NCBI GenBank assembly: GCA_015657635.1
Contig: JACDQM010000034.1
Span: 9,925-73,924 of the forward strand
Reading direction: 5' to 3'
DNA length: 64,000 nt
Origin: Roseateles sp.
Lineage (GTDB): Bacteria > Pseudomonadota > Gammaproteobacteria > Burkholderiales > Burkholderiaceae_C
The translations under genes and the position numbers were made by a program. The notes beneath the pieces were generated by a model. That model worked only from the letters and a program-made list of their open reading frames with translations. It was not told the DNA's origin and did no database searches. Shown here one piece after another: positions 18,070 to 24,035 of this stretch (positions are counted from its first letter, which is position 1; each line of letters begins with the position of its first letter).

Positions 18070-21000
18070 ATGAACGTCAGTTGGAATCTGGGACTCGTCT
18101 TCCTGTCTATCGTCGTTGCCGCCTTCGGCTCCTTCGCAGCGCTGTCCCATGCGCAGCGGCTGCGAGCCAGCGCCGGCCATGCAGCCCGCTACTGGCTGAT
18201 GTCTGGTGGCATCACGCTCGGCATGGCGATCTGGTCGCTGCACTTCATCGGCATGCTGGCATTCCACCTGCCGATCGAGCTGTCCTACGACCTGAAGCTC
18301 ACGCTCTTGTCGATAGTCCCGGCCATCGCCGCGTCGCTGCTGGGCTTCCAGTTGCTGCGCGCACCCTCCGTGCGCATCGGAGCCGTCACGGCCGGCGGCG
18401 TGGCGATGGGCCTGGGCATTGCAGCGATGCACTACATCGGCATGGCCGCACTGCAGCTGCAGCCAGCGATACGCTACGACCCGTTCATCGTCGCGCTGTC
18501 TGTTGCGATCGCCATCGCTGCGGCCATTGGCGCCCTGCTGATCGTCTATGCAGGCGAGAAGCTCCGGCTGAATCCCTGGGTGCACCAGGGTCTGGGATCG
18601 CTGATCATGTCTGCCGCGATCGCGGGCATGCATTACACGGCGATGGCCGGCATGGACATCGCCGCCGCTGCCATCTGCATGGGTGGCGGAGCGCGGGTGC
18701 CGCCCGAGGTGCTGGCCCTGACGGTCAGCGTCGGCGTCTTCCTGCTGTTCGGCGGCGGCCTGATCGCCAGCCTGTTCGATCAGCGCATGGCCAGCCAGAG
18801 CCAGGAGGCGCTGCAACGCGTGCAGGCCGCCGGCAATGTGTTGCGGGAGATGACAGACAACATTCCCGCTGCGGTGTTCCGTTTCCGAGGCAGCTTCAAG
18901 GACGGTGGTTTTGCCCATGTGAGCGCCCAGGTCAGGCCACTGCTGGGGATCAGCATCGCGGACTTGCTGGTCAATGCGCGCGCCTGGACCGACATCGTCG
19001 CGCCCGAGGATCGTCCCTCGCTGCGCGCAGCGCTGCGCAAGGCCGAAGCCGAATGCATGCCGTGGCAATTCGAGTTCAGGGTGCGCCAGCCCGGCTTCGG
19101 CGAGCGCTGGATCCAGGGCAACGCCACCCCCTACCGCGATGCCGCGGGCGAGTTGATCTGGAACGGCTACTGGATCGACGTCACCGAGCGACGGCTGCGC
19201 GAAGCCAAGGTGCAGGGGCTGCTCGAGTACAACCCGGATGGCCTCATCATCGTCAACAGCGAGGGCGTGATCACGCTGGTCAACGGCCAGGCCGAGCAGC
19301 TCTTCGGTTACCAGCGAGAACAGCTGATCGGCCGCCCCGTCGAGCTGCTGATGCCGCACAGTCTGCGGGAACAGCATGCATCGTTGCGCAGCGGCTACTT
19401 CGCCGAGCCCGAAGAGCGCCGCATGCGGCCCGGGCGCGACTTCTTCGGGCTGCGCAGCGATGGCGAGCAGATCGCCATCGAAGTCAGCCTGAACCCGCTG
19501 CAGACCGAAGACGGCGTTTCCGTGATCGCTTCCGTGCGTGACATCACCCGGCGCAAAGCCGCCGAGACCATGCTGCGCGAGGCCGAGCACATGCTGCGCG
19601 AGATGTCGAACACGCTTCCGGGCGTGGTGTTCCAGTACACCTCGTTCGGCAACGGAGCGCGCCGCTTCGACTTCGTCAGTTCGCGCCTGCAGGAGCTGCT
19701 CGGTGTCAGTGCCGGCGCGCTGCTGGCTGATGCCTCCCAGCTCTTCGACGCGATCGTGGCGGAGCATCGCTCCGCAGCGCGCGACAAGATCAAGGCCGCC
19801 GAGCACGCCGAAGCGCCTTGGGAGATCGAGTTCCAGCTGATGCGTGCCGACGGCAGCACGGCCTGGGTGCGCGGCGCGGCCGTGCCGGTCAGGCAGCTTA
19901 AGGTCGACCATGTCGAGCTCTTCAACACCACCACCTGGTCGGGCTACCTGATCGAGATCACCGAGCACAAGCGCATGCAGGAAGCGCTGCACGAGGCCAC
20001 TGCCGCCGCCGTCGCGGCCAGCCGCACCAAGAGCGATTTCCTGGCCAATATGAGCCACGAAATCCGCACCCCGATGAACGCGATCGTCGGCATGTCGCAC
20101 CTGGCGCTCAAGACCGAGCTCGATGCCAAGCAGCGCAACTACCTGGACAAGATCCAGCAATCGGCGCGGCATCTGCTGGGGATCATCAACGACATCCTCG
20201 ATTTCTCCAAGGTCGAAGCCGGCAAGCTCGGCATCGAAAGCGTGGAGATGGACCTGGAGCATGTGCTGGACAACGTCGCCACGCTGATCAGCGACAAGGC
20301 GAATGCCAAGGGTCTGGAGCTGCTATTCGACCTGCCGGCAGACGTTCCCACCTCGCTGCTGGGCGACCCGCTGCGGCTGGGGCAGATCCTCATCAACTAC
20401 GCCAACAATGCGGTCAAATTCACCGCCACCGGCGAGATCGCCATCATCGTGCGCAAGGTCGAGGAAACCGACAGCGACCTGTTGCTGCGCTTTGCCGTGC
20501 GCGACACCGGCATAGGCCTGAGCGCCGAGCAGAAGGCGCGCCTCTTCCAGAGTTTCCAGCAGGCCGACACCTCGACAACGCGCAAGTACGGGGGCACCGG
20601 GCTGGGACTGGCGATCAGCAAGAGCCTGGCTCAGCTGATGCACGGCGAGGTCGGCGTCGAGAGCGTGCCCGGTGTCGGCTCCACCTTCTGGTTCACCGCC
20701 AGGCTCGGCAAGGGCAATGCCAAGCCGCGCCAGCTCAGTCCGCGTGTGGACCTGCGCGGCAAGCGCATGCTGGTGGTCGATGACAACGACAGTGCGCGCA
20801 CCATCCTGGCGGACCAGCTGCGCTCGATGTCCTTTGCAGTCGATCTGGTCGATTCGGGCAGTGCAGCGATCGCCCGGCTGGAGCACAGCAGCGAGCCCTT
20901 CGACGTCATCTTCCTGGACTGGCAGATGCCCGGCATGGACGGGGTGGAAACCGCCCAGCGCATCGTCAGCGAGGGGCTCGCCGACGCGTCGCGTCTGGTC

Positions 21001-22239
21001 ATGGTGACCGCCTACGGCCGCGAGGAAGTGATGGCCAGCGCGCGCCAGGTTGGCATCGAGGATCTGCTGATCAAGCCGGTCAACCACTCGATCTTGTTCG
21101 ACAGCGTCATGCGCAAGCTCGGCGCCGAGCCACAGCCCGTGGCTGCGACGGAGCGGATCTCCCGCCACGAGAGCAGCGGGGTGCGCTTGGACATGCTTCG
21201 CACACTGCGCGGCGCGCGGGTGCTGCTGGTCGAGGACAACGACCTGAACCAGGAAGTCGCCACCGAACTGCTCACCGATGCCGGTCTGCAGGTGGACGTC
21301 GCCGACAACGGCCTGCTCGCGCTGAAGATGATGCAGCAGCAGCCCTACGACATCGTGCTGATGGACATGCAGATGCCAGTGATGGATGGCGTCACCGCCA
21401 CACGCGAGATCCGCGCCCTGGGCCAGTTCGATGAGTTGCCCATCATCGCGATGACGGCCAACGCGATGGACGCGGACCGTCGACGCTGTCTGGACGCCGG
21501 CATGGTCGACTTCGTCGCCAAGCCCATCGATCCCGACGAACTCTGGCGTGCCCTGCTGCGCTGGGTCAAGCCGCGCGCTGGCGATGCGCCAGCCAGTCCT
21601 GTCAGCGTGTCCGCCACGCCAGCCGACGCGATCGCGCTCCCGGCCGGACTGCCCGGGGTGGACATGGAGCTGGGCTTGCGCCGTGTGATGGGCAAGCAGG
21701 CGCTGTATCTGTCGATGCTGCGCAAGTTCATGGCGGGGCAAAGCCGCTTCGGCGCCGCCATCGAGCAGGCCCTGGACGCGCAGGATTGGGCCGAGGCCGA
21801 GCGTCTGGCCCATACGCTCAAGGGCGTGGCCGGCAATATCGGCGCCACCGAGCTGCAGGCCCGGGCTGGCGAGCTCGAGGCGGCGCTGAAGGCCAAGCAG
21901 CCGCGCGCCCAGATCGATGTGTTGCTGGCAGCGCCGACCACCATGCTGGCTGAACTGATCGGCGCCATCAGCGCCGCGCTGCCGGCCGAGCCGAGGGCCG
22001 CGCCCGCGCTGGTGGACCGCGCCAAACTGCGCGAGGTGTGCGAGCGCCTTGCACAGTTGCTCGCCGATGACGATGCCGAGGCGGCCGAGGTGCTGGAGGC
22101 CAACCAGCAGCTGCTGCGCAGCGCTTTCGGTGCGGCCTTCAGCGGCATCGAGGCCGGCATTCACAACTTCGACTTCCCCGCCGCGCTCGACGCGCTGCGC
22201 CTGTCGCAGCACAGCACAGCGGCCGCCTCGGACCGCTGA
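18070..22239 (+). CDS. hybrid sensor histidine kinase: MHYT membrane domain, 3 PAS-like modules, HisKA, HATPase, 2 REC, Hpt
   Basis: Start taken at ATG 18070 ([20 protein letters not shown]). MHYT-type repeats are [18 protein letters not shown] and MHYTAMAGM. One clear PAS segment is [31 protein letters not shown]. The H-box is [18 protein letters not shown] and the G-boxes are DTGIGL and [10 protein letters not shown]. The two REC domains carry DWQMPGMDG and DMQMPVMDG, and the Hpt domain carries [12 protein letters not shown]. Confidence 0.9.
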
Positions 22240-22271
22240 GCCCAGGCATTCCGAGCACCAAGGAGCACCGC

Positions 22272-23429: not shown

Positions 23430-23600
23430 ACCCTGGGCCCGCAAGAAGATGCGGGCCTGCCGCGCGTCGAGGCGAAGACCAGCAGGCGCGTCGCCACTCT
23501 CAAGCCGCCAGCGGCCATGGCATCATGCGGTGCATGCTCGCCAACAGCGGCTCGCCAACAGCGAACGGTCTGCACACCTAGCCGAGGTCAGCTCCCCGTC

Positions 23601-24035
23601 ATGTCACTCGAAGCCATTGCCTACACCAGCAGCGCGGTTCCAGGCCTCACCGAGGCGAGTCTCGAACACCTGCTGACACGCGCACGCCGCAACAACGAAG
23701 TGCTGGGCGTGAGCGGGGTGCTGCTCTTTCACGATGGTTCCTTCCTGCAGTATTTCGAAGGTCCTCCGGAGGCCGTGAGGCAGGTTTATGAGCGCATCCA
23801 GCGCTCGCCGATGCATCGCGACATCATCGAACTGATACGCGGCCCGATCGAAGAGCGAAGCTTCAGCAACTGGCTCATGGGCTTCACGCGCGTGCCGGAA
23901 TCCTCCGCACTCCAGATGTCCAACGCCTCCTGGAAGACGCGCCTGAGCCAAGCCAATCGGGCTGCCTCGGCCGCCGATTCCGATGGTCTGGATCTGCTGA
24001 AGCAGTTCTGGGCTTCGAACCGCGGCGCCGGATAG
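23601..24035 (+). CDS. stand-alone BLUF-domain blue-light/FAD sensor protein (144 aa)
   Basis: Internal ATG of track ORF 23517..24035. The sequence reads MSLEAIAYTSSAV...RRNNEVLGVSGVLLFHDGSFLQYFEGPPEAVRQVYERIQRSPMHRDIIEL...SNWLMGF. This contains the BLUF Tyr, Gln (FLQYFEG) and Trp/Met signature positions. Confidence 0.85.
   Translation: MSLEAIAYTSSAVPGLTEASLEHLLTRARRNNEVLGVSGVLLFHDGSFLQYFEGPPEAVRQVYERIQRSPMHRDIIELIRGPIEERSFSNWLMGFTRVPESSALQMSNASWKTRLSQANRAASAADSDGLDLLKQFWASNRGAG

Follow-up and report, generated by a model that had tools for sequence, protein, structure and literature searches.

An RpfC/RpfG-type phosphorelay system with MHYT input and an adjacent orphan gene of a short BLUF protein in Roseateles sp.

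Whether a blue-light receptor acts on the enzyme encoded beside it is the question raised by a locus of Roseateles sp., located in the 64,000-nucleotide (nt) stretch of DNA analysed here (the window; GenBank assembly GCA_015657635.1, contig JACDQM010000034.1, positions 9,925 to 73,924 of the forward strand). Three genes follow one another on its + strand. They encode a hybrid sensor histidine kinase of 1389 amino acids (aa; 18070–22239), an RpfG-family response regulator of 385 aa (22272–23429) in which a receiver (REC, residues 12–123) is joined to an HD-GYP domain (residues 150–366), and a short stand-alone BLUF protein of 144 aa (23601–24035). A preliminary description, made from the sequence alone, had given the three co-directional genes with gaps of 32 nt (22240–22271) and 171 nt (23430–23600), a kinase composed of MHYT, three PAS-like modules and HisKA-HATPase-REC-REC-Hpt, and a BLUF-only protein with the conserved Tyr, Gln and Trp/Met. 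All of this is borne out here, by the open reading frame (ORF) coordinates, by Pfam matches and motif positions, and by residues Y8, Q50, W91 and M93 of the BLUF protein, respectively. It had further proposed that two inputs, phosphorylation from the kinase and light through binding of the BLUF protein, converge on one phosphodiesterase of cyclic diguanylate (c-di-GMP). The locus is an uncharacterised RpfC/RpfG-type system with MHYT input, beside which an orphan gene of a short BLUF protein is located. Probably it consists of two independent units placed side by side, a gas/redox phosphorelay of the RpfC/RpfG type (18070–23429) and an unrelated BLUF protein (23601–24035) acting elsewhere.

Genomic neighbourhoods of the regulator and the BLUF protein

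The closest homologs of the regulator examined were five proteins with 77–81% identity, encoded in four distinct neighbourhoods (loci L075/L076, L077, L078 and L105/L106). Directly upstream of each of the five lies the gene of an orthologous MHYT-PAS hybrid kinase, 62–63% identical to that of the window over the full length in L075–L078 and, in L105, 56% identical to it in the C-terminal part of 289 aa. The flanking genes vary between contexts (malic enzyme/methyltransferase, TldD/FabMG or tatC), and none of these five kinase-regulator operons contains a BLUF gene. At two remoter loci the regulator homolog (73% identity) follows a hybrid kinase with other sensor domains, and no BLUF gene was found at either. 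Since the upstream pairing is kept while the flanks differ and BLUF is absent, the conserved unit is composed of kinase and regulator, and the BLUF gene stands outside it. Judged by gene order among these relatives, the two genes together make up a conserved operon. Hence, of the two converging inputs, the half leading from the kinase to the HD-GYP protein is supported by the conserved pairing and by intact relay residues, but the half leading from light finds no synteny to stand on. As a separate observation, the metagenomic ortholog of the kinase in L075/L076 (2995–6992) is divided into a 1023-aa sensor-kinase-REC protein and a 297-aa REC-Hpt protein, either by a natural split or by a frameshift.

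The neighbourhoods were also approached from the BLUF side. Twenty-two homologs were aligned, and a scan with this alignment over a set of genomes with a single representative of each bacterial species gave 73 BLUF loci, mostly of Burkholderiales and Xanthomonadales (35–65% identity); a scan of Joint Genome Institute (JGI) metagenomes added 24 further loci with up to 69% identity. A motif census within 3 kb covered 98 BLUF-homolog loci (35–69% identity), about 80 of them flanked on both sides by 1.5 kb or more. Within that distance no HD-GYP gene was found (0/98), and the census yielded two real GGDEF/EAL genes and two histidine kinases. Likewise, tblastn searches with the kinase, the regulator, GroES/GroEL and UxaA of the window gave no HD-GYP gene beside any BLUF homolog; the sole full-length HD-GYP match (locus L011) is located 6 kb from the BLUF homolog, on the opposite strand. 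Synteny of BLUF-only with REC-HD-GYP genes had been set beforehand as a check on the proposed light input, and it failed from both directions, in 98 of 98 BLUF loci and in all five HD-GYP operons. Because no synteny is seen from either side, the adjacency to the HD-GYP gene is lineage-specific and explicable by chance. Among the loci compared it is unique to this window, and the comparison indicates that it is most likely a lineage-specific accident of gene order.

The closest BLUF homologs whose surroundings could be read are found among unrelated genes. The homolog with 65% identity (Piscinibacter) is placed between TspO/cupin genes and a second BLUF gene plus a methyltransferase gene, that with 64% between HTH_31/PCC and YCII, that with 58% (Methylibium) between lpxC and mntP/ftsZ, and that with 54% (Hydrogenophaga) among GNAT and glyoxalase-type genes. 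Across the 16 Burkholderiales-type BLUF loci there is no real neighbour gene that appears repeatedly. When the ORFs within 4 kb of the 73 loci were clustered all against all, only within-genus synteny emerged (Stenotrophomonas groups), and a conserved partner gene of the BLUF family was rejected. BLUF paralogs often occur in groups of two or three within a few kb, as in the Piscinibacter metagenome-assembled genome and in many Stenotrophomonas genomes, and at L001 (6466–7893; here with TspO 2 kb upstream), L045–L047, L053, L055 and others.

One locus shares a further gene with the window. In Pseudorhodoferax sp. Leaf267 (L005, 3391–8435) a BLUF homolog with 48% identity comes directly after an operon for sugar acids, which encodes a UxaA-type dehydratase, a dehydrogenase, an HpcH aldolase and an SMP-30 lactonase. 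The UxaA homolog of that operon (72% identity) lies 3 kb upstream of the BLUF homolog, and in the window a UxaA-type gene (15906–17447) is located just upstream of the kinase. That UxaA occurs near BLUF in both may go back to a gene order once held in common, or may be due to chance. An ancestral UxaA...BLUF neighbourhood into which the kinase operon was inserted was considered and judged too weak, as the genes between UxaA and BLUF in L005 are those of the sugar-acid operon and the TRAP-transporter genes of the window have no counterpart there.

Anatomy of the hybrid kinase and the HD-GYP regulator

The ORF of the kinase extends over 17746–22239, but the protein itself begins with the ATG at 18070 (MNVSWNL...), as the orthologs do. 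Residues 1–241 (18070–18792, + strand) constitute the MHYT membrane sensor region. It contains three PF03707 stretches (E 1e-44 to 2e-41), with the motifs LHFIGM (57–62), MHYIGM (120–125) and MHYTAM (187–192) conserved in three orthologs. The three repeats place the protein in the MHYT sensor family; the six-helix membrane topology is presumed. Three MHYT repeats likewise serve as membrane input in CoxC and in NbdA, MucR and CdgB, the last three being MHYT-GGDEF-EAL proteins, and several of these proteins are tied to c-di-GMP turnover. Unlike in these proteins, the MHYT region of the window sits on a histidine kinase and would act on c-di-GMP through a phosphorelay that ends in an HD-GYP protein encoded by another gene. 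The statement of the preliminary description that gas sensing by MHYT has never been proven is out of date, because copper-dependent CO sensing, with O2 as a competitor, was shown in 2024 for the MHYT domain of CoxC (PMC11347149). By analogy with CoxC, the one protein for which this is shown, the MHYT region of the kinase would be a copper-dependent diatomic-gas sensor. Before CoxC, which is an MHYT-LytTR regulator, the MHYT proteins studied were all GGDEF-EAL fusions (PMC11347149), so an MHYT histidine kinase is still uncharacterised as far as that paper shows.

Three PAS modules follow the membrane region: a PAS_3 domain at residues 282–363 (18913–19158; Pfam PF08447), a middle PAS at residues 381–492 (19210–19545; Pfam PAS) and a second PAS_3 domain at residues 535–608 (19672–19893; PF08447, E 6e-11 on the sub-sequence). 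The middle PAS is FixL-like, its best matches in the PDB being the haem-PAS domain of FixL (E 1.5e-14) and DosP. Three orthologs share its His436 as well as the Arg downstream of it. His436 is aligned with the His that we take to be the proximal haem ligand of FixL, and a Gly of the middle PAS aligns with what is presumably a second Arg of the FixL pocket (Arg206 in BjFixL numbering). As a lead, this domain may be a second gas sensor beside MHYT in one kinase.

The transmitter (20029–20706) comprises HisKA, residues 654–718, with His663 in the H-box SHEIRTP, and HATPase_c, residues 765–879. It is followed by two receivers (20770–21552), residues 901–1011 with D950 in FLDWQMP and residues 1051–1161 with D1099 in LMDMQMP, and by an Hpt domain, residues 1216–1285 (21715–21924; PF01627, E 3e-13), with His1248 in HTLKG. 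The phosphorelay residues are all intact, both in the kinase (H663, D950, D1099 and H1248) and in the regulator (D16/D17, D60, T90 and K112). An H-box His, HATPase_c, a receiver Asp and an Hpt His are thus present in one protein, as in hybrid kinases of the BarA/TorS/RpfC type; the best NCBIfam matches of the kinase are BarA and TorS, below their equivalog cut-offs.

A hybrid kinase of the HisKA-HATPase-REC-Hpt type beside a REC-HD-GYP regulator is also the arrangement of RpfC/RpfG of Xanthomonas, and the regulator belongs to the RpfG family as defined by Galperin and Chou. The system of the window differs from it in the input, formed by MHYT and three PAS domains, and in the second REC. RpfC carries its own, different membrane input. 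The circuits H-NOX/HnoK/HnoD and NosP/NahK 'NosR' offer another likeness, as in them a diatomic-gas sensor signals to a hybrid kinase and this to a REC-HD-GYP protein. In the system of the window, gas would be sensed not by a separate H-NOX or NosP but within the kinase itself, by MHYT and perhaps also by a haem-PAS. The NosR model is indeed the best NCBIfam match of the regulator, but with 151 bits against a cut-off of 400 the regulator is not a member.

In the regulator, Pfam detects REC at residues 12–123 (Response_reg, E 8e-27) and HD_5/HD at residues 167–345. The receiver shows the RpfG-family set of an acidic pocket (D16/D17), the acceptor D60, T90 and K112, and the output domain is a full-length HD-GYP, with HD at 219–220 within HDIGK (219–223), GYP at 288–290, and R318 and K321 at the positions of c-di-GMP/guanine contacts. 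Among solved structures the HD-GYP of Pseudomonas aeruginosa PA4781 is the closest (4R8Z, E 5e-60 over 217 residues), followed by PmGH (4MCW, E 3e-38 over 200 residues). The preliminary description had regarded the motifs HDIGK and HQEKWDGSGYP as intact. Both are present, but the metal-ligand motif is not fully so. The consensus of HD-GYP proteins is HHExh(D/N)GxGYP, and in HQEKWDGSGYP (residues 280–290; 23109–23141) Q281 takes the place of the second His and aligns with H277, a metal ligand of PmGH whose replacement by Ala leaves the enzyme essentially inactive. Instead of the complete eight-ligand HHE site, the regulator thus retains seven of the metal ligands of PmGH, as D175, H179, H219, D220, H248, H280 and D310. 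HQE is found in 114 of the 120 nearest regulator homologs and is therefore a selected subfamily trait, not decay. The family is very large and tightly conserved, with more than 8000 proteins at E ≤ 1e-60 and 70–81% identity in Alpha- and Betaproteobacteria.

The related enzymes depart from the PmGH site in other ways. PA4781 has the same REC-HD-GYP architecture, but carries HHE and GFP where the regulator of the window carries HQE and GYP, and it lacks the acidic residue at the E185 position, occupied here by D175. RpfG of Xanthomonas lacks the ligands E185 and H189. Both are retained by the regulator (D175 and H179), in which the H277 position is occupied by Gln. The 'key' His that is absent from Xanthomonas RpfG is the equivalent of H189, not the His of HHE. 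Judged from these residues, it is plausible, if not established, that the regulator is an active c-di-GMP phosphodiesterase.

The BLUF protein and its flanking regions

The mechanical ORF of the BLUF gene begins at an upstream ATG (23517), and every homolog begins at M-x-LEA, which sets the start at 23601. Residues 5–94 match Pfam PF04940 (E 1e-26). In the alignment of 22 homologs Y8, N32, Q50, W91 and M93 are invariant, and Y8, Q50, W91 and M93 are in register with PixD. The AlphaFold 2 model (pLDDT 90) consists of a b-a-b-b-a-b-b core and two C-terminal helices (102–120 and 128–141). Foldseek matches it to AppA and PixD (E 1e-10 to 4e-11), as well as to the BLUF domains of Slr1694 and BlrP1, the last giving the best TM-scores for the whole model. 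Fold, photocycle Tyr and Gln, Trp/Met and the flavin-contacting Asn are those of a BLUF photoreceptor. From alignment and model, the protein is an ordinary short blue-light receptor with all photocycle residues kept, and flavin photochemistry is predicted for it.

The stand-alone type represents the majority of bacterial BLUF proteins. With about 140–150 aa and a BLUF core followed by two C-terminal helices, the protein resembles PapB, PixD and BlsA. PapB and PixD are encoded beside their partners. Unlike these two, the family of the window BLUF has no conserved neighbour and resembles orphan receptors of the BlsA type; the conserved neighbourhood or co-occurrence of BLUF and phosphodiesterase genes expected of a pair of the PapB-PapA type is seen neither in the 98 BLUF loci nor in the five HD-GYP operons. 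The G+C content at third codon positions (GC3) of the BLUF gene, 0.759, also departs from that of the kinase (0.872) and the regulator (0.891), by about 4 binomial standard deviations for 144 codons.

Five nt after the stop codon of the HD-GYP gene the spacer of 171 nt contains a GC-rich hairpin (23435–23458, + strand) with a stem of 9 bp and a loop of 6 nt. The fold of a 51-nt context has -24 kcal/mol, with z -1.8 relative to shuffled sequence. The terminator scan gave no canonical terminator after the HD-GYP gene, this hairpin not being listed. The preliminary description had taken hairpin and gap to suggest that the BLUF gene has its own promoter; the hairpin is confirmed, but the scan detected nothing resembling a promoter between the two genes. 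With Rfam at a permissive threshold, nothing was detected in this spacer or in that upstream of the kinase. The TAG of the regulator and the ATG of the BLUF gene are in the same frame, and the 56 intervening codons (23427–23603) are free of stops. A read-through HD-GYP-BLUF fusion was rejected as chance: the spacer is non-coding by its G+C content at the three codon positions (0.70/0.68/0.68), and an open same-frame spacer is expected in about 11% of cases (1/3 x 0.33).

Downstream, the BLUF gene lies 262 nt from groES, on the same strand. The only promoter-like site in the scan is located upstream of groES (24135–24162; 11/12 match, TTGAAA-16-TATAAT), within CTTGAAA...CCCATAT, which is sigma-32-like. 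It is followed by the inverted repeat CTAGCACTC-N9-GAGTGCTAA, presumably the heat-shock operator CIRCE, with 17 of 18 positions of the consensus; promoter-like site and repeat are located within 24134–24196. The groES-groEL spacer (24637–24710) matches the Rfam family sX9, a Xanthomonas small RNA, with 42.7 bits (E 3e-5), just below the gathering score of 44. At the other end of the locus an 85-aa ORF with a hydrophobic N-terminus (17472–17729, - strand) separates the UxaA-type gene from that of the kinase, to which it is oriented divergently; it has no Pfam match.

Coupling of light to the HD-GYP regulator

What the kinase-regulator unit senses, how the phosphoryl group is relayed and what the output enzyme does we infer as follows. 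Gas or redox signals at the MHYT and PAS domains would set the autophosphorylation of the hybrid kinase, and the phosphoryl group would pass from His663 to a receiver Asp, from there to His1248 of Hpt and finally to Asp60 of the regulator. The HD-GYP output would then hydrolyse c-di-GMP, lowering its level, or signal through protein contacts. The BLUF protein would respond to blue light independently of this unit, and its target would most likely be the product of another locus, as in the case of the short BLUF protein BlsA.

The arrangement could also be read as a lineage-specific version of the original proposal, in which the BLUF protein binds the REC-HD-GYP protein and blue light gates c-di-GMP hydrolysis, converging with the gas/redox signal of the kinase. 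Several observations favour it and, together with others, weigh against the separation of the locus into two units. The BLUF gene adjoins that of the regulator on the same strand, and the promoter scan gave no sigma-70-like site in the 171-nt gap; since the genes are co-directional, co-transcription of the BLUF gene with the operon is possible. The hairpin lacks a U-tract and its z is only -1.8. In the BLUF protein the photocycle triad is intact, the two C-terminal helices are conserved and of the kind that serves partner contacts, and the whole model has its best TM-scores to the BLUF domain of BlrP1. PixD binds the neighbouring response regulator PixE and is a precedent for a short BLUF protein of this kind. 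Moreover, the nearest genomes in the searched collections reach a protein identity of only about 80% for the regulator and 69% for BLUF, and BLUF, regulator, kinase and UxaA are all singleton 90% clusters, so that the comparisons were made above the genus level. Catalytic competence of an HD-GYP protein of the HQE type is an unproven prediction, based on residue conservation. Finally, PapB-PapA is a precedent for a short BLUF protein that binds a phosphodiesterase (PMC8846402). Nevertheless, BLUF is absent from the five closest HD-GYP operons and HD-GYP from all 98 BLUF loci, the GC3 of the BLUF gene differs from that of the operon, a hairpin follows the stop codon of the regulator, and fusions of BLUF with HD-GYP domains have not been found, according to reviews. 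Signalling genes amount to several percent of such genomes, and one chance adjacency is to be expected among many BLUF genes, as illustrated by the two histidine kinases near the 98 loci. We hence regard light gating as quite unlikely. Its fuller form, in which the BLUF gene was captured downstream in this lineage only, is co-transcribed and binds the REC-HD-GYP protein, so that blue light is joined to the signal of a two-sensor kinase with Cu-MHYT and haem-PAS, is very improbable.

Two other explanations concern single parts of the locus. The BLUF gene might be tied to the downstream groESL genes, in response to light and heat stress, rather than to those upstream, an idea suggested by the distance of 262 nt on the same strand. 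Given that the stretch between BLUF and groES carries a strong promoter of groES itself together with a CIRCE-like operator, and that no GroES/GroEL gene was found beside the BLUF homologs at any of the 98 loci, such a link is extremely improbable. The other explanation refers to the output step and is compatible with two independent units: the regulator could be a weak phosphodiesterase or none, with a Gln for a metal-ligand His, and signal via protein contacts. The essentially inactive H277A mutant of PmGH and the HHE consensus point in this direction, and so do the low-activity and inactive members of the RpfG family that act via interactions, as has been proposed for Xanthomonas RpfG. The opposite is suggested by the retention of seven PmGH ligands, GYP, R318 and K321, by the near-universal HQE in a very large conserved subfamily, as expected of a functional and selected active site, and by RpfG of Lysobacter, which is active despite the absence of another 'key' His. 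Gln, moreover, can ligate metals. A regulator of little or no activity is therefore rather unlikely.

Reviews report that the combination of BLUF with HD-GYP has not been seen. If the light-gated model were true, it would provide the first light-gated HD-GYP enzyme and the first link between BLUF and HD-GYP; from the sequence features such coupling is possible, yet the comparative data give it no support. The value of the locus lies in the unit that its relatives share, a conserved operon in which an MHYT hybrid kinase would signal to an RpfG-type regulator, with a possible double gas sensor in the kinase and a variant HQE subfamily of HD-GYP proteins as its output.

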